Positions 3,001 to 63,819 of a DNA stretch of 64,000 bases are shown piece by piece. The first letter of the stretch is position 1. Each line of letters opens with the position of its first letter. The notes beneath the pieces were generated by a model. It was not told the DNA's origin, searched no databases, and saw only the letters and a program-made list of their open reading frames with translations. Both the position numbers and the translations under genes were made by a program. This stretch comes from a virus, in the IMG/VR virus record IMGVR_UViG_3300009431_000003. One strand, given 5' to 3'.

Positions 3001-6000
3001 GTAAAAGAACCATCTTTTGCTGTCGGATCCGGGCCGGAATCAAACCACTCCGGCGGATACTGCCCTAAAACAGGCCACAGTGCTGGATCATCATACAATT
3101 CTTGTGGTGTTGGAAACCTACAAGAAATTATCACATCCGTCTCCGGCCACCAATAAGGAGGAGCTACTCCATTAAGAAAAGGACCTACACCAACAACCCA
3201 TTCTATATAATCTGAATTGGCTGCGGTTATACGACCAAAGTCATTCCACCAATAAGGGGGAGTTGTTGGAATACCAAATCCTTTTACCCAATGTAAGACA
3301 TCTGCCGCAGTAAAAGGATTTGGGAAAGCTGGATTGCCTTCCGTATTTTGGTATATCCAATTCGCCGCGTGAAAAGCGATGATAGAACCCCAGTAATGTG
3401 GAGCATATTCCGGATATTGGTCTGTAGTTCCCGAAGATCCATCAGGATAATCTTTAGGAGTATACCAAACAGGTGGCCATGTTTGTCCCGTAACATAAGG
3501 CCACCACTTAGGCATAGCTCCTTGAGGGGTGGACCAGTTCTCAAATACACCCCCAAAATTCAATTCAATTGGGTAAGTATCCTTAATTAAATAAGAGCCT
3601 TTTGCTTTTCCGTCCCCAATCTTTAGAATGTCTCCCTTTTTTGCATCAAAAATTGGGGAGGGAGTAAGCTCCGGTTTTCGGTAAGCATAATCATACCGTC
3701 CTGGAGGATATAATTCCGGAGTAACTACCTCTTCGGCCTCAGTATCCACACTAAGAGTTAAAGAGCCCCTATTCTGTCTTTCAGTACTTTCCAACCAACG
3801 AGCTATCTCTCCTAGACTAATGTTTGGCAAGCCAAGGAACAGATTATTTTTACCATCAAAGAAAGCTTTAGGGATACAGACCTCAACAATTTTAGCCTGA
3901 CCATGTTCCGGAGGAAAGGTATCAAGGACCATGACAGGAAATACATACCCATCACTAGTAGGATCATAACACTGAAGTAAGGCCAAAGCCTGTAGCCTTG
4001 TATGTCGTAAGGTTGTACCAAAAGGATATTTCTCACTGGCAGCGTCTGTTTCTTGTCCAGGATATTTGAAGGGATCGCCTGTAGCCGGATTATTTGGATA
4101 AGGAGGTGGGTACGTAAGATACTCAGGCTCAAATAATTGCTGTACTGTATAGTCAAATCCAGCATACCCATAATCAGCAAGAATTTCTTCGAATATAGTT
4201 TCTCCGCCCTCACGAGCAATTCGGGCAACCTCTTCAAGATCGAGATTTGTAATACCTTCAGGAGGCTCAATCATATCGAACCAACTGGCAAAATCAGGCA
4301 TCACCAATCCATATTTACCTACAGAAGCTTCTGTTGCTCCAGAAAATGCTTTCTGATTTCTACCATCTACAGGCAACCCGTAAACAGCATCTATTCCCGT
4401 TTTTTGTTGAGAAGAATTTAATATCCCTAAATCGTGAAAAGTAATTACTGGAAACTCAACTCCTTCTTCCCTACGCACAATTCTATATTCAAGGTTAAAC
4501 CTACCAGCCGACATGCCACGGCTGATACGTAGTTTCCTGTTGCTCTCTGGAGAATTATCGATAATTACTCCAAGAACAGAGTACTCGCCCGTATCCGGCC
4601 CCTCATTAATCTGGAGAATATCACCGGCAACCACCCCAAAAGAACCGGCATTCTCATTTAAAGTAACAATGTTTGATCCAGCATCGGTACTTAATCCGGC
4701 TATGTTTTCTCCGTCATAAGGCAGGACAAATCTTTCGATATTACGAAGATCTACAACCACATCCTTAAATATTTTGAATGCTGTCGGATTATCTGGGGCG
4801 AGCGCCCTGTCCACCCATAAATAAGACTCGTTGACTTCCACTGGATCATCTATATCTTCTATACCTACAACAGTAAACAGGCCAAGATTCTCTCCGGAAT
4901 TAATCCATAATTGGTACCCTACACGGACACCAAATTCATATAATCTGCGTCCGACACAATGAAGTCTGTTGGTTTCGTGTAAAGGCACTTCTGGGTGCAT
5001 AGTAGGGTCCACTGCCTCAAGAGTAACCGTGTCGCCATCCCCCAGAGCAATAAACTCAATGGTAGGGATATCTTGAACCCGTAATTCCTTCTCTTCTTCA
5101 TTTAGTCCCCGAAGGTAAATATCCGTATGCCCGCCTATATGAATCTCGTTCTCTGCGACAGTAATTGTACCATAATCAGTTGTAGGATTTTTAATGCCTC
5201 CAGGAATATCAGATAAGGTAATCCTCTGCATGTTGCGTTTCCATACATACGGAGCAGGGATCAGAAAACTTACCGGAAGAATTTTACTCCCATCTACTTC
5301 TGCTCTATGATCCAATTTTGCAACTACAATATTATCGGCAAGAAAAGATAAATCCCCTGCATTGACATATACCTTCTCAATCTCAAAAGTATCATACTCT
5401 TCAGTCCCTGGAGGAAGATCGAACATCGTTGGTGAGTAATATATTTCAAGGAAGTCTCCTTCTTGATGTACATAAGTATTGCCGTCTGCGTCTTGAAATT
5501 TCCAAGTATCAAAGCCAATAAAAATATCCCCAAAAATCAGCCCGGTACCGCTAAATAAAGCGGTCCCAGTTAAAGCTCCTTTTAGAATGTCCCTTTCCAT
5601 TTCTACGTCTCGGTACCCTATAGCAAGAATAGCTCTTAAGTCTGGGAATAGACGATATAAGGTTTTTTGAATACCTTTGCCTGTATTTAGAGATCCTTCC
5701 GCATTCCCAGACTCAGCCTTCCTAAGTAAATCGGCCTTAGTATCTGCGGGAATACCCCCTTTATATCTCTGTTTATTTGTAATACTATGTACGCCTTCTT
5801 GTCCTCGAATATTCTTCAACATCCCTGGTTCTATATCGTACTCATCGCCAGGAAACTCAGCCAGCACGGTAATATCCCAAAAATATAAACCGTCCTCAAA
5901 ATTAACTATCATGTCTTGAGCAGTAATTGAAAAAGTACCAATCGGGAAATATCTAAGTCCTGTGTTGGTGGAGCATTCTACACTTGGAGTAATATAGTCT

Positions 6001-40290: not shown

Positions 40291-40749
40291 ATGAATAAAA
40301 AACAATTTATTTCTATGATTCTTATTGTTATCGGTATAATTTTGGGATGCCTGACAGTACATAGTCGTATGTCTCAAGGGTGTAGTTTCGAAGGCATTCC
40401 TCTCCATGGGTATGTACGGGTCGTGGAATGCTTTGGGGACATTAAAGTCCAGGAAGTACAATCTCCGCCTATTGACTTGTATGTAAAATGGGTAGATGCT
40501 TTCCCTGATACCTGTGGCCAATGGAAACAAGTTGGTGCTTTTGAAGACTTCACAATAGAATTTACCGACTTGCTTCCAGACATACGAGTCAAGTTTGTGC
40601 ATGGGTTTCCTGACAGCGGAGACTCATCTAACAGGGACGATGCTCCAAACAATGAAGATACTATGGACGACGACGATGAGTGGGCCGGAAAACCTTACGG
40701 CCCTCCGGATAACGACACAAAAACAGAAACTTGTGGAGGAACTTACTAA
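40291..40749 (+). CDS. Secreted/membrane-anchored repeat protein (KVxxVxxFPD-type repeats) with acidic tail
   Basis: N-terminal TM/signal; CSFEGIPLHGYVRVVECFGDIKVQEV...VKWVDAFPD...VKFVHGFPD; AAGGAG RBS. Confidence 0.65.
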   Translation: MNKKQFISMILIVIGIILGCLTVHSRMSQGCSFEGIPLHGYVRVVECFGDIKVQEVQSPPIDLYVKWVDAFPDTCGQWKQVGAFEDFTIEFTDLLPDIRVKFVHGFPDSGDSSNRDDAPNNEDTMDDDDEWAGKPYGPPDNDTKTETCGGTY

Positions 40750-40761
40750 AGTTCCTTTACT

Positions 40762-41250
40762 TTGGAGAACAAAATGAAGTATTTGCTTACAGAAGTATCT
40801 GACAACGAGGAAGAGGAAATCAATACGCCTTTTGATGTCTCAAATGTTCTTGTCCTACGAGAACCTCTAGGAGACTTTGCTTTGTTAATGGAATCCAAGC
40901 TGCGGAAACACGATGTAACCAGGGGTCCTCGCGGATGGATCACCAACTGGCAAAGACAGCCTGGAGTACATCCCTGGACCGAAAGCCAAAAGCTTCAGTT
41001 CCTACACCAAGCAATAATAAAAGAAGGATCGGAGCTGCAAGGTGCACTGTCCAACCTTCAAGCGTATCTGTCAATCAACAAGCACAGCTTCAAAAAGCTG
41101 GACGGCCCTTCGGTACTCGAAGCTCTTGGGGCCAGCTCCGTCGAGGAACTCATCGAGCGGGTTCAGGAAGAAGCCGCGGATCTCGCAAACCAGGCTATGA
41201 TGCTATCTGACTTAGCCGGCACCCTAAAAACAGAGAACGACGATGCTTAA
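40762..41250 (+). CDS. MazG-like / all-alpha NTP pyrophosphohydrolase family protein
   Basis: FALLMESKLRKHD...KEGSEL...EEAADLANQAMM. Confidence 0.6.
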   Translation: MENKMKYLLTEVSDNEEEEINTPFDVSNVLVLREPLGDFALLMESKLRKHDVTRGPRGWITNWQRQPGVHPWTESQKLQFLHQAIIKEGSELQGALSNLQAYLSINKHSFKKLDGPSVLEALGASSVEELIERVQEEAADLANQAMMLSDLAGTLKTENDDA

Positions 41251-41836
41251 AAAGATAAAAGGAATACAGGTACATACAGCTTTAGCGTACTTTGTTCTAC
41301 TGCCTACCCTTTTCTTTGTAACTATGCAGGAAAGTACCAAAGAATATAAAATCTGTTGGGACTTTATAGATATGGACACTATTGGCAGACACTGGAACGA
41401 CAGGCAACAAGAGATCGACCGTCTTACTCCAGTGATTCAAAAAACACATAAACACACAGACCCTAAATACCTTGTAGAGCTAATCCCAATTGTAGTTGAT
41501 TGGTCCTGGAACAGAAATATTGATGTACTATGGGTATCTGCTATTATCTCTGTCGAAACTAATTGGATCCGACAAGAAAGATATGGTATGGGTGGTGGCG
41601 GGCCGATGCAGGTAAATCATACCTGCCACGCTGAAAGGTTTGGAGTAAAAGACATCAGCGAGTGGTGGAAAAACCTGAACCTCAACCTTGAAGCCGGTAC
41701 CTGGGTACTACAACAATGTCATGGAAGCGCAGCTTGTTATAACGGGCATCCTGACTTGGAACTCCGGGCAGAATATGTTACAAATGTAAATAAGCGCTTT
41801 AAACGGATCAGTAGGGCATGGAAGGAAAACCCATGA
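41243..41836 (+). CDS. Lytic transglycosylase (SLT) with N-terminal TM segment
   Basis: SAIISVETNW (catalytic Glu), GPMQVN, NLEAGTWVL, ACYNG. Confidence 0.8.
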   Translation: MLKKIKGIQVHTALAYFVLLPTLFFVTMQESTKEYKICWDFIDMDTIGRHWNDRQQEIDRLTPVIQKTHKHTDPKYLVELIPIVVDWSWNRNIDVLWVSAIISVETNWIRQERYGMGGGGPMQVNHTCHAERFGVKDISEWWKNLNLNLEAGTWVLQQCHGSAACYNGHPDLELRAEYVTNVNKRFKRISRAWKENP

Positions 41837-42291
41837 AAGTAATTGACGGAAAGATAGCTAAAGATGGTCCGAAAAAAATAAATATCCACACCAAAGGGAG
41901 ACAAGTAGGTAATACAGTACGCGGTATTTCTAAAGACGTGTTTGTTCAGCTCAAACAAGTCATTGAGCAGACTCCTTTTATGCCAAAAAAGGTAATCCTG
42001 CCTCCTCTTACAGCAGAAGATATACAAGGTAAGTATATCTCAAGACGCACCACTGCTCTTCGAGACCAATATGCTGCAATCTATAGAAATTCTAAGGGAG
42101 TTGGGCAACAGTCTCTCGAAGAAATTAATAGAACCCTGAGCCGCAAAGCAGAAGGAATGAAACCATCCCCACCTACATCCCATTCAGAGTTATCAGAACC
42201 AACTACAGTATCCCCAAGAATATATTGCCGCTGGACAGCAGAGCAACAAGCTCCCGTAGCAAAATCGCCTTATTCTGAACCCAGTACTTGA
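41833..42291 (+). CDS. Hypothetical basic protein
   Basis: AAGGA RBS; ATGA coupling. Confidence 0.65.
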   Translation: MKVIDGKIAKDGPKKINIHTKGRQVGNTVRGISKDVFVQLKQVIEQTPFMPKKVILPPLTAEDIQGKYISRRTTALRDQYAAIYRNSKGVGQQSLEEINRTLSRKAEGMKPSPPTSHSELSEPTTVSPRIYCRWTAEQQAPVAKSPYSEPST

Positions 42292-42316
42292 CAGCCGCAG
42301 AAAGAGTCACTAGTTT
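42288..42316 (+). promoter_or_regulatory. sigma70-type promoter TTGACA-N17-TAGTTT
   Basis: Exact -35, 17-nt spacer, TAnnnT -10; upstream of a 58-aa ORF and the tRNA-like RNA. Confidence 0.6.
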
Positions 42317-42334
42317 CTTCTCAAGGAGAAATTA

Positions 42335-42511
42335 ATGAATAAGCCCAATTTTATTGAAGCGGAAGTACCCAAATTCCCTTCTGCACCAATGCCTACTGAT
42401 TCTTTCGAAGAACCTTCCTTACCTATTTCCTTCGAACACTTTCTATTTATATCCATTCTTGTCCCACAAATATTTAAACCTACCTATTATTGGTGGGAAC
42501 AATATATCTAG
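42335..42511 (+). CDS. Small hypothetical protein, 58 aa, hydrophobic C-terminus (not in ORF track)
   Basis: AAGGAG RBS; MNKPNFIEAEV...FLFISILVPQIFKPTYYWWEQYI*. Confidence 0.6.
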   Translation: MNKPNFIEAEVPKFPSAPMPTDSFEEPSLPISFEHFLFISILVPQIFKPTYYWWEQYI

Positions 42512-42550
42512 CTCTGTCAATAGATTAAATCTAACCTCCCGACTCAATAT

Positions 42551-42624
42551 GGCGGTTGTGCGTTGAAAAGCATAACGATAGGGTAGCTCCCTAGCTGCCG
42601 GTTCGTATCCGGCCAACCGCCCCA
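42551..42624 (+). ncRNA. tRNA-like RNA with His-type acceptor (G-1:C73, encoded CCA) and aberrant anticodon arm
   Basis: Acceptor GGCGGTTG/CAACCGCC + CCA; D stem CGTT/AACG; stem TAGGG/CCCTA with 5-nt loop TAGCT; T arm GCCGG-TTCGTAT-CCGGC. Confidence 0.75.
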
Positions 42625-42641
42625 ACTCTAAAGGAGTCATT

Positions 42642-43064
42642 ATGAAAACCATTATTGTAGTAGAGATACCACATACACGTAAACCTTCAGCTTACTTCAC
42701 CACCCTCAAAGAGCTAGTATTCAGGGCGAAAGAAGAGAATAACAATTCAACATACCATGTCTGGACCTCCCTAAAAGAACTACAAGATTGTTTCGGTGAG
42801 GACATACCACTGCCCGCAAGGCACATTATTGCGGCACAAGATGCAGCTGTAGAAGTAAATAATGGCGGCGCTGTTGATTGGTACTCTTTAAAGGCAGCAC
42901 CCTCTCCAGAAGAATGGGCCTACGAAGTCCTCTTTGGCGATCTCCACTCTTATAAAATATTTGATGACCCAGAAGAAGCGGAGGAATGGGCTACATCTTA
43001 TCGCGGCCACCAGTGGCCGCAGGCTACTTCTGCTCTTGAAAAAGAGCTTATACAACCTATTTAA
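42642..43064 (+). CDS. Hypothetical protein, 140 aa
   Basis: AAGGAG RBS. Confidence 0.75.
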   Translation: MKTIIVVEIPHTRKPSAYFTTLKELVFRAKEENNNSTYHVWTSLKELQDCFGEDIPLPARHIIAAQDAAVEVNNGGAVDWYSLKAAPSPEEWAYEVLFGDLHSYKIFDDPEEAEEWATSYRGHQWPQATSALEKELIQPI

Positions 43065-43073
43065 GGAAATACT

Positions 43074-43571
43074 ATGAAATACTTTAAAGGGTACGTGGTT
43101 CATTTAGGCGCCACAGTAAAGCACAAAGCCTGGGTATTGTTTTACCTATCCCACTTCTGCACAAAGTTAATGTATCGAGGTATAGTACATGATTTATCTA
43201 AATTCTCACATATAGAAGCTAACGGTTTTGCTCAAACAATATTCAAACTAAAAACTTCTAAGTATGGATCTGAGGAATATTATAAGCTTCTTTTACAGCT
43301 TGCTCCCAGCCTGGAAAATCATTATAAAAAGAATAAACATCACCCGGAACATTGGCCAAATGGTGTCTCCGGAATGGACCTAACTGATTTTGTAGAACTT
43401 ACCTTTGATTGGCTCGCCGCGGTAAAAAGATACAAAGACGGAGACCCAATAAGAAGTGCCGAGCTTAATAAAATTAGGTTTGAATATAGCGACACTGTTG
43501 AAAGTATCCTGGTTAATACCTTCCGACGCATGGGCTACAAACGTCAGATTACAAAAGTGGAGATAGAATGA
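43074..43571 (+). CDS. DUF5662-like (HD-type His/Asp) protein
   Basis: VHDLSKF...NHYKKNKHHPEHW...MDLTDFVELTFDWLAA. Confidence 0.75.
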   Translation: MKYFKGYVVHLGATVKHKAWVLFYLSHFCTKLMYRGIVHDLSKFSHIEANGFAQTIFKLKTSKYGSEEYYKLLLQLAPSLENHYKKNKHHPEHWPNGVSGMDLTDFVELTFDWLAAVKRYKDGDPIRSAELNKIRFEYSDTVESILVNTFRRMGYKRQITKVEIE

Positions 43572-44311
43572 GCAATGTAATAGAAACTATTTTTAAAAAT
43601 CTACCTGGGATGAAAACCGAACAACGAGTTATCGCAACAAGTATTCTAAATCAGCTCTTAAAATCTTCCGAGACTGACCTCGATATTAAGAATCTCGATG
43701 ATGCGGACTTCGAGGACGTATGCACATTACTTTCTCTCAATCAGAGAAGGCCTACCAATGAAATAGTCTTGGCTAGTTGTATATCTTTAATTAAAATACA
43801 CCGTATGCTTGCCAAAGCACTAATACAGTACTCCAACAATACAAAAGGAGAAAAGATGGAAAGCAAGAAAAAGAAAGTTGCACAAGAGAAAGCTGTTTTG
43901 GCGGCGCGTCTTGATCGGCAGTATAAAGTTATCCGAGACACAAACGGACTACCAAGAGTTATTATTTGTAAATTATTTCCCCGGAACAAAAGCCCGGAAG
44001 AAACTAAATGCCGTAGAGTATTAGCTATCGGATATGCCATCTGTTCTTTATCTGAAGAACCCACCAAGAAAAAAGGTAACGCCGCTGCTTATGGCCGGGC
44101 CTTTAAAGCTCTATACGAAAAGAAAAGCTTTGCCCCAGTTAGTCGCGTAGAAATTATGGAAATTCGCGGAACTCTGGTTAGGGTTCCTAGTCTTGCTATG
44201 GTGGCTCTTGAGACCATCCCTAAGGAAGAACTAGAAAAGGACGCGACTTTACATGAGTTTATGTGGGATAAATATGCTTCTCTTCATAAGGGCATCTTCA
44301 TCGAGAAATAA
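43568..44311 (+). CDS. Hypothetical protein, 247 aa, with an in-frame internal RBS+ATG
   Basis: ATGA-coupled; AAAGGAG...ATG before MESKKKK. Confidence 0.65.
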   Translation: MSNVIETIFKNLPGMKTEQRVIATSILNQLLKSSETDLDIKNLDDADFEDVCTLLSLNQRRPTNEIVLASCISLIKIHRMLAKALIQYSNNTKGEKMESKKKKVAQEKAVLAARLDRQYKVIRDTNGLPRVIICKLFPRNKSPEETKCRRVLAIGYAICSLSEEPTKKKGNAAAYGRAFKALYEKKSFAPVSRVEIMEIRGTLVRVPSLAMVALETIPKEELEKDATLHEFMWDKYASLHKGIFIEK

Positions 44312-44440
44312 TCTTCCTTGACAACTCTCTCCTACAAAGTAAAAATAGTCGATACGAACCAAAACTGTTGGGTGGCTTTCATCCAAATACAATTAAAATC
44401 TTATCAACAAGCCAGGAATCCCTGTTGTCTAGGAGACATT

Positions 44441-44629
44441 ATGCCATGTAACCGTAAAACAGAAGTTTATAGCAGAATTGTAGGGTATTATCGCCCAGTC
44501 CAACAATGGAATCCAGGTAAAAAAGCCGAGTTTCGTAACCGAAAAAACTACAAAATAACTGTGCCAAGCCCTAAAAAAGATTTAATTTCCGTACATACGG
44601 CACTGGAGCCCATTACAACTACTGCATAA
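44441..44629 (+). CDS. Stand-alone NrdD (class III RNR) C-terminal glycyl-radical peptide, 62 aa
   Basis: AGGAG RBS; TEVYSRIVGYYRPVQQWNPGKKAEF matches the NrdD C-terminal SRxxGY motif. Confidence 0.85.
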   Translation: MPCNRKTEVYSRIVGYYRPVQQWNPGKKAEFRNRKNYKITVPSPKKDLISVHTALEPITTTA

Positions 44630-44644
44630 AACAAAAGGAGGCTG

Positions 44645-45283
44645 ATGAGTAAAAATATATACCGTTACCTATTCCAACCTACGTTTTTCCCTTTATCATT
44701 CACATTAGGAGAAATTAGAGTACTTTCCGGGCGGGCAGCAGAATATGCCGCAGCAAAAATTGCTAAAGAACATCTTCATCCTAACTCTTGCAAATTTAAG
44801 GGGATACTAAAAACTGACTCCTTTGGTATTGAGCCTGATATAATTGTTCCCTACAAAATCCCCTGGTATATTGAAGTAAAATCTATAGCTTCCTATGGGG
44901 ATGTACTAATCCGGGTTGATCAGTTTCAAGGCATCAACAATCATGGAGGAGTAAGCTACGCCTGGTTAGTTCATAATGGTGGACTTATGAAAATTCAGCC
45001 CATTGATATGATCTCCAACTATCTTAAAACTGCTTACCTCTGTCTCATACCGAATGATGTCGTACACGAAGCTATAAAGCTCTACGCCGACACCTGGGAC
45101 GGTACCGACAAGAGTAAGCAAGGTGTTCTAATGCCGAGGAAAGATAATCCGGCAGAGACAAAGGTTGGGTGGTGTGCTTATACTTGGTATCGCTTTAGGT
45201 TCACTAAACTACTAAAGCTGGTCGGCGACCGGGCAATAAGATTAAGGCATTCCAGTTATGAAGAACAACAAAAACCAAAATAA
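44645..45283 (+). CDS. PD-(D/E)XK-like nuclease
   Basis: EPDII...YIEVKS. Confidence 0.55.
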   Translation: MSKNIYRYLFQPTFFPLSFTLGEIRVLSGRAAEYAAAKIAKEHLHPNSCKFKGILKTDSFGIEPDIIVPYKIPWYIEVKSIASYGDVLIRVDQFQGINNHGGVSYAWLVHNGGLMKIQPIDMISNYLKTAYLCLIPNDVVHEAIKLYADTWDGTDKSKQGVLMPRKDNPAETKVGWCAYTWYRFRFTKLLKLVGDRAIRLRHSSYEEQQKPK

Positions 45284-45728
45284 ATACCGCTGGACAAACA
45301 AATTATCTGACGGAACTTACAGATCAAAAGGAGGAAAGAATAAGGTAGGCTGGAATAACTTTAGAAATGAACGCTGCCCAACATGTAATCGTAAGTATCG
45401 ATATTTCCGTGCGGAGATAAATAAGGAAGCCTATAACATCATTCTGCAAGAGCGCGACGACCCAAAACACCGTAGGACCCAAATAAACATTAATCAGCTC
45501 CTCGGCAAAAAAAGAGAGATTAAACTTGAAGCCTGGAACGCACATAAGCGCGAATGTGAGCTAGTGGCTCGACAAAAAGCCGGAGAAGATATCTCGGAAG
45601 AGGAGATGGTCGATGCGATTATTGAGGTCGAATCTTACCCAGGGTACTTTCTCAAAACTGATTCTAAAACCAAAGATATCATGTACCCAAACCCCAGCAA
45701 TGATGATGATGATGACATACCTTTTTAG
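45258..45728 (+). CDS. Hypothetical protein with CPTC and acidic DDDDIPF C-terminal tail
   Basis: C-terminus NDDDDDIPF resembles SSB-type acidic tips. Confidence 0.6.
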   Translation: MKNNKNQNKYRWTNKLSDGTYRSKGGKNKVGWNNFRNERCPTCNRKYRYFRAEINKEAYNIILQERDDPKHRRTQININQLLGKKREIKLEAWNAHKRECELVARQKAGEDISEEEMVDAIIEVESYPGYFLKTDSKTKDIMYPNPSNDDDDDIPF

Positions 45729-45736
45729 GAGGACAC

Positions 45737-46318
45737 ATGAGTAAATACCCACACTGTGAAAAGCTGGCTGAACACAAGAGAGAAGTCCGCACCCTCACGG
45801 AGTTCCTTGAGTGGACAGACAGTGAGGAACTGTACCTGGCGCAGTACGCCAAGAAACCAAAAAGCCCTGACGACTACCCAGAGGAGGACATGGTAGATCT
45901 GGAGGAAGAGGAGCCAATACTTGCTCTATTGAAGGCATTCGATCCAACCAAGAGATGGGGCGAGGCTCCTCCAACCTTCCTACCCAGACTCTACCTTGAG
46001 CACAAACGAATGTGGCACATGACCGATGAGTGGGGCGCTCTCTTCAAAGCCTTTGGTCGTCACCAGGACCTGATCAATAAATATCTCGGTATCGATATGG
46101 CCGAGGTCGAAAAGGAGCGACAACAAATGCTGGCCGAGCAGAGACTCCTTAACGAAGGAAAGCACAGCTTCTGTGGAGGCTGCGAGGACTGTCTTGAGAA
46201 AGAAAAGATGGTGCTAAAAGGAATCGGCGGCAAAGACATTTACTTCTGCGAGAAGTGTCTAATTAAGATTGCGAAGATCATTGAGATCGGAGAGAACCAG
46301 GAGGATACTACTGAGTAG
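45737..46318 (+). CDS. Hypothetical protein with C-terminal Zn-finger
   Basis: GGAGG RBS; CGGC...CEKC. Confidence 0.7.
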   Translation: MSKYPHCEKLAEHKREVRTLTEFLEWTDSEELYLAQYAKKPKSPDDYPEEDMVDLEEEEPILALLKAFDPTKRWGEAPPTFLPRLYLEHKRMWHMTDEWGALFKAFGRHQDLINKYLGIDMAEVEKERQQMLAEQRLLNEGKHSFCGGCEDCLEKEKMVLKGIGGKDIYFCEKCLIKIAKIIEIGENQEDTTE

Positions 46319-46423
46319 GAAGACCCTGATTAACTTCCTGCATCTCCACCCACAGACGTTGCTGAGGTGTGAGAGTCTCTCAGTTCGCCCTCATAATAAC
46401 AAAACACCTACAAGGAGAATCAC

Positions 46424-46612
46424 ATGAAAAATGTACAGACAGCAGTTAATGGTAATATTTTAACTATTACAGTAGACCTCTCGAAAGAGTTTGGCCTCTC
46501 TAAATCTGGGAAGACAGTCATTATTGCTACTACAAGTGGCTCAATCTCAATTGATTCGGACGATAGAATCAAATTGGGCCTGAACATCTATCGCTATCCG
46601 GAGGAAAAATGA
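46424..46612 (+). CDS. Small conserved beta-rich protein, 62 aa
   Basis: AAGGAG RBS; LTITVDLSKEFGLSKSGKTVIIATT is a recognisable small-protein family. Confidence 0.8.
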   Translation: MKNVQTAVNGNILTITVDLSKEFGLSKSGKTVIIATTSGSISIDSDDRIKLGLNIYRYPEEK

Positions 46613-47019
46613 TTAAATGTCCTGTTTGTGACTCCGAAACTATTCGGATGGAACAGAGAGTCAGCGAACTATGGTCAATTGAGGAAGAAGAAAAAGATCA
46701 TACTCTCAAAGAATTTGAATTGGTAAAAACAATCCCTCTCAATAACCCACAAAAATCAGTTTACTGCCCAGATTGCGGTACCAACTGGACGTACGAAAAC
46801 TTTGAGCGCCAATATGAAACACATAGACTTACCAAACTTCTGGAAAACAACGGCTTCGTAGCCGAGGACTTGGACGAGTTAGTTCACAAGGTTTACAGTA
46901 ATAGCGCTTCTCTAATCAATAATTCAGGAATAAAAGCACAAATATCTGCGTTGCTAGGCTTCTCAAGCCAAAAACATGTCCGCACCAGTATTGCACAACT
47001 ACTCAAAAAGGAGAATTGA
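46609..47019 (+). CDS. Zn-ribbon protein, 136 aa
   Basis: CPVC...CPDC; ATGA coupling. Confidence 0.7.
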   Translation: MIKCPVCDSETIRMEQRVSELWSIEEEEKDHTLKEFELVKTIPLNNPQKSVYCPDCGTNWTYENFERQYETHRLTKLLENNGFVAEDLDELVHKVYSNSASLINNSGIKAQISALLGFSSQKHVRTSIAQLLKKEN

Positions 47020-47020
47020 T

Positions 47021-48022
47021 ATGTCCGCAGGAATTACAAAGACAGATGGAATGTTCTATTTTGGTGACACGCCTTGGCACGGTCTCGGCACAGAACTAAA
47101 AGAGCTTGCTACGGCCCAACAAGCTATCGCAGCCGCAGGTTTGGAATGGACAGTTTCTAAGCATCCCCTTGCTTGGGGGATACTAAAAGAACGCCCTGAT
47201 GGAAAAGGTGGCGTAGAAGATCATATCGAAAACTGGCAGAGGGCTAAAGGACGCTTTGCTATGATCCGTGATGATAATAATGCGTTTCTCGGAACCGTAA
47301 GAGGTGTTTATCAACCTCTCCAAAATATTGAAGCCTTTAATTTTATGGATTCTTTGGTGGAAGGAGAAAAAGTACTGTACCACACTGCGGGCTCTTTGCA
47401 TGGCGGGCGCAGAATATGGATGCTGGCTCAAATGCCAAAAATGGTTGTTCTTGATAATAATGGAGAAGACAAAATTGGCTCCTTTCTTCTCTTAGCCAAT
47501 GCTCATGACAGCACCATGTCTGTCACTATTAAACATACTAATATTCGAGTTGTATGCGCCAATACTTTGGAGTTTTCTCTCCAAGAAGATGACGCTCTTC
47601 CTATTATCAGAATTAGTCACAGTACTTCAATGCACTCACAGATTGAAAAGACAAAGGACATTCTTCGATTGAGTGAGCAATCTCTACATAACGTGTATAG
47701 TATTGCCACCGGACTAAAACAACGCAGCTTCACCACACAAAAGTTCAAGAAATATATTGAAGCTCTTTTCCCGGACAACCCTGAAGCAAAGAACCACACA
47801 AGGAGTCAAAATATTCGCAAGAAAATCATTGATCTATGGGAAGGCGAAGGCAGAGGGTTAAATATCTCCGGCGTTCAAGGGACCGGATGGGCTGCGTACA
47901 ACGCTGTTGCAGAATACCTTGACTGGATCCGCGGCAGAAATGCCAATAACAGAATGGAAGCCACTTGGTTTGGTGATAACAGGAACATCAAGGAGCGTGC
48001 TTTAGTTTTAGCCAACGCTTAA
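47021..48022 (+). CDS. DUF932 / phage-plasmid TIGR03299-like protein
   Basis: TPWHGLG...AGLEWTV...YQPLQN...TAGSLHGGRRIW...NAHD...RVVCANTL...GTGWAAYNAVAEYLD. Confidence 0.9.
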   Translation: MSAGITKTDGMFYFGDTPWHGLGTELKELATAQQAIAAAGLEWTVSKHPLAWGILKERPDGKGGVEDHIENWQRAKGRFAMIRDDNNAFLGTVRGVYQPLQNIEAFNFMDSLVEGEKVLYHTAGSLHGGRRIWMLAQMPKMVVLDNNGEDKIGSFLLLANAHDSTMSVTIKHTNIRVVCANTLEFSLQEDDALPIIRISHSTSMHSQIEKTKDILRLSEQSLHNVYSIATGLKQRSFTTQKFKKYIEALFPDNPEAKNHTRSQNIRKKIIDLWEGEGRGLNISGVQGTGWAAYNAVAEYLDWIRGRNANNRMEATWFGDNRNIKERALVLANA

Positions 48023-48029
48023 GGTTATA

Positions 48030-48062
48030 AGTTTGGGAAGGATTCTTAATCCTTCCCAAACT
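48030..48062. terminator. Perfect 15-bp hairpin (terminator or processing site)
   Basis: AGTTTGGGAAGGATT-ctt-AATCCTTCCCAAACT directly after the DUF932 stop; no clear U tract. Confidence 0.65.
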
Positions 48063-48064
48063 AC

Positions 48065-48094
48065 TTGACACTATTAATTTTAATTACTTATAAT
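48065..48094 (+). promoter_or_regulatory. Consensus sigma70 promoter TTGACA-N18-TATAAT
   Basis: Both hexamers are exact consensus. Confidence 0.8.
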
Positions 48095-48102
48095 TACAGA
48101 CT

Positions 48103-48735
48103 ATGTTTTATCACAAAAACTTACTCTTTATACATATCCCGAAAACAGGAGGCACTTCTACTACAGAATACTTTAAAAAGGCGTTCAATCATGACACCGC
48201 AGAAGAAGCTCAAGGACTTCATAAACGAAAGCATTTTAGCCTGCAACAGATGCATAACGCAAATGATATCCTAAAGATACCATTTAAAACAATCACAGAA
48301 ATTTCAGTTATTTTTAGGCTGCCATTTGAACAAGTAGTATCCTTGTATCATCACTACAGACAGATCGCTTCTCCTATGAAAATATATCAAAAAGTAGAGC
48401 ATGTACAAAAAGCAGTAGAATTACCTTTTAATTCTTGGATACTTTGGGCTTCTACACATAACCTAAATAAATCAATAGGTAGAAGTTACGAAAAATATAT
48501 TTTTATAGAGGATAAAGTACCTACCAAATTAAAAATAATTGAATATTCTAATCTCCACAAAGAAGTGAGGGCAGTAGTTAAAAGGCATAAAGGAAATTAC
48601 AATACAGCATTTCCTCATCTACTTAAAACAAATCATAAACCTTGGCACATTTATTATAATAAAAAATCCCGCTCCATTATAGAAAAGCACTACTTATGGG
48701 TCTTCAAGCATTATTATCCTAATCTGCTTTCTTGA
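48103..48735 (+). CDS. Sulfotransferase family 2 (carbohydrate sulfotransferase-like)
   Basis: 5'-PSB FIHIPKTGGTS; 3'-PB IFRLPFEQVVSLY. Confidence 0.85.
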   Translation: MFYHKNLLFIHIPKTGGTSTTEYFKKAFNHDTAEEAQGLHKRKHFSLQQMHNANDILKIPFKTITEISVIFRLPFEQVVSLYHHYRQIASPMKIYQKVEHVQKAVELPFNSWILWASTHNLNKSIGRSYEKYIFIEDKVPTKLKIIEYSNLHKEVRAVVKRHKGNYNTAFPHLLKTNHKPWHIYYNKKSRSIIEKHYLWVFKHYYPNLLS

Positions 48736-62856: not shown

Positions 62857-63144
62857 ATGGCCGAACATACGAAACACACGGTAATCAATCTGGGCTTCAA
62901 CGAAATTGGGCATGCCGAAGGTTGTGTAGAACTACAAGCAGAAATTGACGGAGAGCCTTGCAGCGTCATTATTTCATACGAAGCGCGAAAGCAAGAGCTT
63001 TATCAGACCTTTCGAGTAAATGTCCCTGAGCCGGATAGGGTCGCGAGAATAGAGGGAAACACCACCCGTTTTGATTATAATCGGTTCACACACTCTCAGC
63101 ATATATACAGGCAAGCTGTGGAAAGTACAGGGGAGGGGAAATGA
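62857..63144 (+). CDS. Hypothetical protein, paralogue of 59211-59495
   Basis: GGAGG RBS; MAEHTK start. Confidence 0.8.
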   Translation: MAEHTKHTVINLGFNEIGHAEGCVELQAEIDGEPCSVIISYEARKQELYQTFRVNVPEPDRVARIEGNTTRFDYNRFTHSQHIYRQAVESTGEGK

Positions 63145-63617
63145 TGCAGACAGAGAGGATCACGATAGAGAGCATAAATAACCTACATCCTTGTGGGTGG
63201 GACAGAGAAGATAACGGAAAGAATTATACACCTAGACGAGTACGGGAACTATACGAAGGCACAGATAAGGCCGGGGTCACGCCGTTGGGCTTTATAGAAA
63301 GAGCAACCAAACTCAAGGTACCTCCTGAAGATATTTTGTGGGTACTTTTACGGCCGCAGTTCCTTCCGGAACGAGACTTAGAGGAATTGAGTTGCTTGTT
63401 CGCTTTATGGTCTCTACATTTCTTTGAGGAGGCTTACCCAAATGACGACAGGCCAAGAAAAGCTATAGAGACGAAGCAGAGACGGCTCCATGGTAAAATT
63501 TCCGACAAAGAACTGAAAGCAGCAAGGGCAGCGGCAGCAGAGGCAGCAGAGGCAGCATGGGCAGCCTTGCTCGATATATTAGTGGATTACTTGAAAGGAG
63601 TGAATAATGAAAGATAA
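63141..63617 (+). CDS. Phage protein with Ala-rich repeat tract (Imm5-like DDRPRKAIE motif)
   Basis: YPNDDRPRKAIE followed by AARAAAAEAAEAAWAA. Confidence 0.65.
   Translation: MMQTERITIESINNLHPCGWDREDNGKNYTPRRVRELYEGTDKAGVTPLGFIERATKLKVPPEDILWVLLRPQFLPERDLEELSCLFALWSLHFFEEAYPNDDRPRKAIETKQRRLHGKISDKELKAARAAAAEAAEAAWAALLDILVDYLKGVNNER
63519..63566. repeat. GGCAGC(AGA)-type in-frame short tandem repeat
   Basis: About five GGCAGC-initiated 6/9-nt units encoding the Ala tract. Confidence 0.8.
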
Positions 63618-63819
63618 AGCCGCCAGTGACAGAGGAACTGTACAGCTAGCAAATGTTGATGAATCGTTTAATGTAATCAAAGTCAACCTAAAAACAGACA
63701 TCAATACCTTCCTGTGGTCACGTCTTCCGGGCAGCACGACAATTTCGCGGGCAGACGAAATAGCTTGCACGATATACAATGTGATTATAGCAGAATTGGA
63801 GAGTAAAAATGAAGTTTAG
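63607..63819 (+). CDS. Hypothetical protein, 70 aa
   Basis: AAGGAG RBS. Confidence 0.65.
   Translation: MKDKAASDRGTVQLANVDESFNVIKVNLKTDINTFLWSRLPGSTTISRADEIACTIYNVIIAELESKNEV

Follow-up and report, generated by a model that had tools for sequence, protein, structure and literature searches.

The 74-nt element at positions 42551-42624 on the + strand of the 64-kb window (the whole stretch of DNA that we analysed) is, with high confidence, a tRNA-derived gene in which a complete acceptor end of the Bacillota tRNA-His type is joined to a rebuilt body and to an anticodon arm too short to decode. What is new is that the acceptor helix, U8-G9 and the CCA end match genuine tRNA-His base for base, with the other arms unrelated. 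Our preferred reading, to which we assign a probability of about 0.4, is that the gene gives rise to a processed, probably histidine-chargeable and non-decoding mimic of tRNA-His. The acceptor match is striking and a parallel element in an unrelated phage is suggestive; an inactive tRNA copy is a serious alternative.

The usual explanations for phage tRNA genes, codon supply and escape from anticodon nucleases, both require that the anticodon works. A phage RNA that carries only the synthetase-facing end of tRNA-His would, if the preferred reading is true, represent tRNA mimicry that acts on aminoacylation or tRNA processing and not on decoding. It would then be a bacterial-virus counterpart of the tRNA-like structures of plant RNA viruses and of the tRNA-shaped processing signals of eukaryotes. 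If the element is merely a dead tRNA gene, it is ordinary.

Anatomy and the histidine-type acceptor

The element was delimited by reading the sequence, by a cloverleaf scan and by a score of 28.2 bits with the Rfam tRNA model (RF00005). The first-pass annotation had described a cloverleaf with a paired acceptor, an encoded CCA, a D arm, a 5-nt loop, a short variable region and no A58, and our re-reading matched that anatomy exactly. The acceptor comprises 8 bp between 42551-42558 and 42614-42621, with G42551:C42621 at the place of G-1:C73. Its 5' strand runs into U8 and G9 at 42559-42560 (42551-42560 in all, + strand), and its 3' strand, which ends in C73, is followed by the encoded CCA at 42622-42624 (42614-42624 in all, + strand). 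The D arm at 42561-42577 (+ strand), placed by sequence reading, folding and the Rfam alignment, has a 4-bp stem (42561-42564 with 42574-42577) and a 9-nt loop that contains a single G and lacks the GG of G18 G19; an alternative arm with a 5-bp stem and a 7-nt loop is also possible. One unpaired A separates the D stem from the next stem.

The third arm, at 42579-42593 (+ strand), occupies the place of the anticodon arm and is skipped by the Rfam tRNA model. Its 5-bp stem (42579-42583 with 42589-42593) closes a loop of only 5 nt (42584-42588) with no GUG, so that the arm measures 15 nt against the usual 17, and the canonical combination of a 5-bp anticodon stem with a 7-nt GUG loop is not found. 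The earlier statement that the element has no decoding anticodon therefore stands. After a 3-nt variable region (42594-42596) comes the T arm at 42597-42613 (+ strand), with a GC-rich 5-bp stem (42597-42601 with 42609-42613) and a 7-nt loop in which U54 U55 C56 G57 are present and U58 replaces A58; this 17-mer recurs in a second phage contig, L011, described below. The elbow residues of canonical tRNA-His (G18 G19 and the T54-A58 pair) are absent. All 22 base pairs of the four helices are Watson-Crick, with neither a mismatch nor a G-U pair. The element fails three canonical features of tRNA-His, namely the anticodon loop, the elbow residues and the Rfam threshold.

An unusual decoding tRNA can be drawn from the same letters if the innermost G:C pair of the third stem opens, leaving a 4-bp stem and a 7-nt loop with U at position 33 and the anticodon AGC; a histidine-charged RNA of this kind would read an alanine codon. 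This form is 3.7 kcal/mol worse than the 5-bp form, its arm is still 2 nt short and position 37 is a pyrimidine, and misreading of alanine codons as histidine would probably be harmful. We give this possibility almost no weight.

The acceptor was compared with cellular tRNA genes by scanning one genome per prokaryotic species for the first 10 nt and the last 11 nt of the element, set 45-60 nt apart. The scan gave at least 120 matches, and 102 of the 120 listed are ordinary tRNA-His genes of 77-79 nt with a GUG anticodon. Among the matches listed, the tRNA-His genes all belong to Bacillota or Mollicutes, including Bacillus, Halobacillus, Staphylococcus, Paenibacillus, Erysipelotrichaceae, Phytoplasma, Mycoplasma, Spiroplasma and others. 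The element thus shares 21 of 21 positions (G-1, the seven further pairs, U8, G9, C73 and CCA) with at least 102 genuine tRNA-His genes, its 5' segment being identical to their first 10 nt and its 3' segment to the last 11 nt of Bacillota-type genes. The resemblance falls away in the rest of the molecule: the T arm agrees at 10 of 17 positions with the commonest Bacillus-type tRNA-His among the matches listed, the differences in the T stem being pair-preserving and two-sided at 50:64 and 51:63, and the D and anticodon arms are unalignable with tRNA-His genes.

The first-pass annotation had called the acceptor histidine-type from G-1:C73. That label is now firmer, since the whole 8-bp helix with U8-G9 and CCA matches real Bacillota and Mollicutes tRNA-His, whereas G-1:C73 alone would be met by chance in 1 of 16 tRNAs. 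The exact match also serves as a host clue for a phage that lacks cultured relatives, and it hints weakly that the host may be a member of the Bacillota. A strong Shine-Dalgarno (SD) sequence at 25 of 41 rough gene starts in the window fits such a host and is not discriminating.

Fold statistics, copies and the L011 element

To judge the fold against chance, we used a cloverleaf scanner that accepts a 7-bp acceptor, a D stem of 3-4 bp, a third stem of 4-6 bp with a loop of 3-9 nt, and a 5-bp T stem with a 7-nt loop, with Watson-Crick pairs only. On both strands of the 64-kb window, the element was the sole match, and 60 block-shuffled windows gave none. When one G-U pair per helix was allowed, the 60 shuffles gave 21 matches (0.35 per window), and the real window still gave the element alone. 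An unfiltered search with a covariance model of the element found no second copy in the window, and on the reverse strand the model scored only 19.8 bits.

Standard finders treat the element as a marginal case. ARAGORN called no tRNA and no tmRNA in the window, and Rfam at gathering thresholds reported nothing in the whole window or in a 501-nt slice. With laxer filters, an 86-nt slice gave an end-to-end alignment to RF00005 at 28.2 bits against a threshold of 29 (E = 1.3e-4), in which the acceptor, D arm and T arm are covered, the anticodon arm is skipped as a local insertion, and AGCA of the D loop falls at the consensus GGUA. The element is a tRNA-family sequence that lies just under the family cut-off, and it does so because of its anticodon arm and loops. 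This outcome, with ARAGORN silent and RF00005 below its threshold, agrees with what the first-pass annotation had expected (no call or an undetermined one). The Y-RNA-like models of Rfam (YrlA module) did not match slices of the element, even at E <= 10. The predicted minimum free energy fold is not the cloverleaf (-32.0 versus -29.4 kcal/mol, a gap of 2.6); it retains the acceptor and forms a competing 7-bp helix between 42582-42588 and 42593-42599. Competing folds are frequent for unmodified tRNA sequences, and the gap is not decisive.

The same phage is present in assemblies from at least four JGI samples, in which the element and its surroundings are 99.9-100% identical over 1.4-12 kb and the element itself is identical. 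The short loop is therefore not an assembly error. Protein-anchored and DNA-pattern scans of IMG/VR, a metagenome scan and blastn against cultured phages revealed no diverged homologue of the element. The protein-anchored scans were empty or led to one locus without synteny, the 90% clusters to which ten nearby proteins belong contained the same phage only, and blastn against cultured phages gave no match. The DNA patterns used (T arm; T loop with D motif; acceptor with short body; T loop with CCA) gave chance matches only, save L011. Two of the loci recovered were rejected as chance: L007, where the T arm is shared but the acceptor contains mismatches and the match falls within the beginning of a 373-aa ORF, and L018.

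These searches bear on whether the element is a dead phage tRNA-His gene, a once-functional copy that has lost its anticodon loop and elbow residues, no longer serves a function and has as yet no mutations in its stems. Degenerate tRNA copies are common in phages with tRNA arrays. Such an origin would agree with a score just under the Rfam tRNA threshold, with rejection by ARAGORN, with the status of the element as a singleton without conserved relatives and with the loss of the elbow residues that give the normal L-shape. The orphan flanking genes, the lack of a tRNA-related enzyme nearby, the non-cloverleaf minimum free energy fold and the lack of a diverged homologue were likewise counted against a functional mimic. 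Against decay stands the distribution of the changes. Every loop is altered, while the 22 pairs contain no mismatch and no G-U; about seven random changes on 74 nt would spare all 44 stem positions with a chance of about 0.002, a rough figure as the ancestor is not known. Moreover, the acceptor remains 100% identical to genuine tRNA-His despite two double substitutions in the T stem, and simple removal of 2 nt from a His anticodon loop does not yield the 5-nt loop. Intact Watson-Crick helices and acceptor, together with loops that are all off consensus, would appear to fit selection better than neutral decay. We regard a dead gene as a serious alternative, somewhat less probable than the functional mimic.

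The one exception among the pattern matches comes from IMG/VR contig 3300015608_002100 (L011), an unrelated phage of higher GC content with a 13-gene tRNA array. At L011 positions 5361-5427 (minus strand), between tRNA-Tyr and tRNA-Asn, we found a 67-nt tRNA-like element that ARAGORN does not call and that scores 38 bits with RF00005, above the threshold. It resembles the window element in its identical 17-nt T arm, U58 included, in a D loop that has AGCA at the tRNA GGUA and no GG, and in a truncated anticodon arm (3 bp and a 5-nt loop). The CCA is encoded here too, although most of the neighbouring tRNAs have none. The L011 element differs in its Gln-like acceptor (U1:A72, G73), in its location within a tRNA array and in its length of 67 nt. 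A relaxed scan of IMG/VR for the T loop and CCA at tRNA distance gave no further tRNA-like match. Several other tRNAs of the L011 array are non-standard; at 3631-3706 and 4206-4278 (minus strand), ARAGORN reports 'tRNA-???' with anticodon loops of 6 nt and 8 nt, respectively.

A rare elbow variant and a truncated arm, combined with different acceptors, suggest that the window and L011 elements form a class, for which two members are a lead. In its fullest form, this would be an undescribed class of phage 'acceptor-only' tRNA mimics, defined by A18, U58, a common T arm, a truncated anticodon arm and, in each member, the acceptor identity of one particular amino acid (His in one, Gln-like in the other), which host synthetases or acceptor-end enzymes would see without the RNA entering translation. 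We consider such a class a long shot. If real, acceptor-only mimics could be used in titrating a synthetase, as aminoacyl carriers for a reaction outside the ribosome, or as blockers of a defence enzyme whose target is the 3' end of tRNAs.

Proposed working and known systems

In the preferred reading of a non-decoding tRNA-His mimic, the element would be co-transcribed with the flanking + strand genes. RNase P would cut between 42550 and 42551, 5' of G42551 and with U42550 just upstream, so as to keep G-1; bacterial RNase P retains G-1 on tRNA-His precursors with G-1:C73. The 3' side would be trimmed back to the encoded CCA. A 74-nt RNA would thereby be released, and the message would be severed just 5' of the ribosome-binding site of the next gene, leaving it a short leader.

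HisRS would then bind the released RNA and probably charge it, and the ribosome could not use the product. Binding is to be expected from the major HisRS identity set present on the RNA. Minihelices of 13 bp and microhelices of 8 bp are charged efficiently by HisRS when they bear G-1:C73, and in vivo the anticodon, too, plays a part in selection by HisRS (PMC9976931); for the latter reason, charging of the element would be weaker than that of real tRNA-His. Because the ribosome could not use the RNA, its effect would pass through the host enzymes that handle tRNA-His, with HisRS titrated or occupied, or with the RNA acting as a non-ribosomal histidyl carrier.

Processing could also be poor, because the elbow contacts that help RNase P binding are altered. 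In bacterial tRNA precursors, the contacts of G18 G19 with the T loop and the T54-A58 pair help RNase P to bind its substrate. A role as a decoy for anticodon nucleases appears unlikely, since the loop that such enzymes recognise is missing. The element might instead act as a decoy for enzymes that attack acceptor ends, where it would compete with the whole cellular tRNA pool.

A simpler proposal keeps the cleavage and drops the charging. As pure mRNA punctuation or a stability element, the RNA would attract RNase P for no other purpose than cleavage of the polycistronic transcript, which fixes the 5' end of the downstream message, with histidine identity irrelevant and a matter of ancestry only. 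The element does separate two cistrons, is on their coding strand and stops 5 nt short of an SD sequence; a reduced anticodon arm is also found in plant mitochondrial t-elements and mascRNA, and an encoded CCA helps bacterial RNase P to bind. A processing signal would not need an acceptor identical to tRNA-His in all 8 pairs, however, elements of this kind are absent from the other gene junctions of the window, and the elbow that RNase P recognises is altered. On these grounds we judge punctuation by itself to be improbable.

Comparison with known RNAs helps to place the non-decoding mimic that we favour. Bacterial tRNA-His of the Bacillota type (RF00005) has the same 8-bp acceptor, U8-G9 and CCA, base for base, the same cloverleaf, U54 U55 C56 G57 and G53:C61. 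The element departs from it in having no GUG, a 15-nt anticodon arm, no G18 G19, U58, a 3-nt variable region and unrelated sequences in the D, anticodon and T stems. The tRNA-like domain of tmRNA, a molecule known in phages, is likewise a chargeable module of acceptor and T arm that has no anticodon and does not decode, as the element is predicted to be. It differs in that tmRNA has the G3:U70 alanine identity, a tag reading frame, pseudoknots and SmpB, whereas the element has G3:C70 and drew no tmRNA call from ARAGORN or Rfam.

The plant mitochondrial t-elements, the mascRNA of MALAT1 and the TMERs of MHV68 are also tRNA-shaped, with a reduced anticodon arm, and lie in or next to longer transcripts. 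They are excised by tRNA-processing enzymes, as is proposed for the element. They differ in being eukaryotic or organellar, and none retains a synthetase-specific acceptor. We know of no bacterial or phage tRNA-like processing signal of the t-element or mascRNA type. Two tRNAs or tRNA-like RNAs of Bacillota, tRNA-Other of Bacillus cereus (mentioned in PMC5389517) and the non-proteinogenic tRNA-Gly of Staphylococcus, are aminoacylated for regulation or cell-wall synthesis and not for normal decoding. Unlike the element, they are encoded on the chromosome, have an anticodon loop of 7 nt and bear the identity of lysine or glycine. The tRNA-like structure at the 3' end of tobamoviruses is a viral RNA that host HisRS can charge and that has no decoding role, a behaviour the element may share; it belongs to a plant RNA virus, sits at the genome 3' end and has a pseudoknotted acceptor arm, whereas the element is a cloverleaf gene in a DNA phage.

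By analogy, the proposed working of the element would be most like that of the tmRNA domain and of plant RNA virus tRNA-like ends, and its position would be like that of the eukaryotic and organellar processing signals. It is a member of none of tmRNA, the viral tRNA-like structures and canonical tRNA-His, and is best described as a tRNA-derived RNA.

Genomic setting

The window belongs to the genome of a large uncultured phage. The element lies within a run of + strand genes from 40291 to 48735, on the same strand as both neighbours, and thus at a boundary between two parts of a transcript, between two + strand cistrons. Upstream, the ORF list contains a small ORF of 58 aa with a strong SD (42335-42511, + strand), whose stop is 39 nt 5' of the element. 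The SD context of this ORF is repeated at the gene downstream of the element (repeat D1). On the 3' side, the CCA is followed after 5 nt by the SD of the next gene (42630-42636), which, from the sequence and the ORF list, is an orphan of 140 aa starting at ATG 42642 (42630-43064 with the SD, + strand). The gene after it encodes a DUF5662 protein, a phage family. An imperfect 11-bp inverted repeat with a 15-nt loop and no T run after it occupies 42462-42498 (+ strand), in the 3' part of the 58-aa ORF.

No terminator was called between the element and its neighbours. The first-pass annotation had placed the element downstream of a sigma70-type promoter. A promoter scan does not bear this out, as it called no sigma-70 promoter on the + strand between 42000 and 42640. 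The nearest candidate, at 42288-42316 (+ strand), was read from the sequence and is weak: it has a perfect -35 hexamer (42288-42293), a 17-nt spacer and a poor -10, and lies 260 nt upstream of the element, before the 58-aa ORF. We also considered an adjacent promoter with a leaderless start at G-1 and rejected it, there being no acceptable hexamers at the right distance.

The neighbouring genes offer few clues. Among 5.8 billion proteins, the 140-aa downstream protein matched itself alone, and a word-indexed protein search with both flanking proteins and the DUF5662 neighbour found no relatives besides themselves; a 247-aa neighbour gave only partial, weak matches in the protein search. Predicted structures are of low confidence (pLDDT 37 for the 140-aa protein and 40 for the DUF5662 protein), and neither the structure atlas, a PDB sequence search nor NCBIfam assigned a function to the neighbours. 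In the 30 neighbouring ORFs, Pfam, PHROGs and NCBIfam detected no integrase, synthetase, RNA ligase or CCA-adding enzyme. A primer-binding-site-like complement of the element 3' end was not found elsewhere in the window.

The surroundings also bear on whether there is an RNA gene here at all. The letters could instead be a site that works as DNA, such as an attP-like tRNA fragment or a recombination site, or part of the minus-strand ORF at 42443-42640. Partial copies of tRNA genes are frequent at phage attachment sites, and in the JGI annotation 42310-42640 carries two minus-strand ORFs of 48 and 65 aa, the longer of which (42443-42640) spans the element. Yet the cloverleaf is complete and no mere 3' fragment; its identity with tRNA-His comes in two blocks, of 10 nt and 11 nt, which is not the pattern of an attP copy, and the neighbouring ORFs have no integrase domain. 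The two JGI ORFs look spurious, as they have no SD and the 65-aa one interrupts the + strand run. Finally, U8, the T-loop TTCG and the CCA all lie on the + strand, in keeping with the low reverse-strand score of the covariance model. An explanation without an RNA gene is therefore highly improbable.

Elsewhere, the window contains long minus-strand genes without a family match, a protein with six glycosyltransferase and methyltransferase domains, sulfotransferases, a radical-SAM protein and a RimK-type ATP-grasp protein. Within the same + strand run as the element, a 62-aa ORF at 44441-44629 (+ strand) matches only the C-terminal glycyl-radical piece of NrdD (PF13597, E = 1.4e-10) and may be a stand-alone 'spare part' glycyl-radical protein. 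Further along, a strong hairpin and, directly after it, -35 and -10 hexamers of consensus sequence 17 nt apart occupy 48032-48093 (+ strand), just ahead of a sulfotransferase gene with its start at 48103; no clearer host-type promoter was seen in that part of the window. A 158-aa protein encoded at 63141-63617 (+ strand) matches an Imm5-like immunity protein (PF21805, E = 8e-7). Close by, at about 63450-63700, four independent contigs of the same phage from different samples come to an end, which could reflect an assembly break, a repeat or a physical end of the genome.
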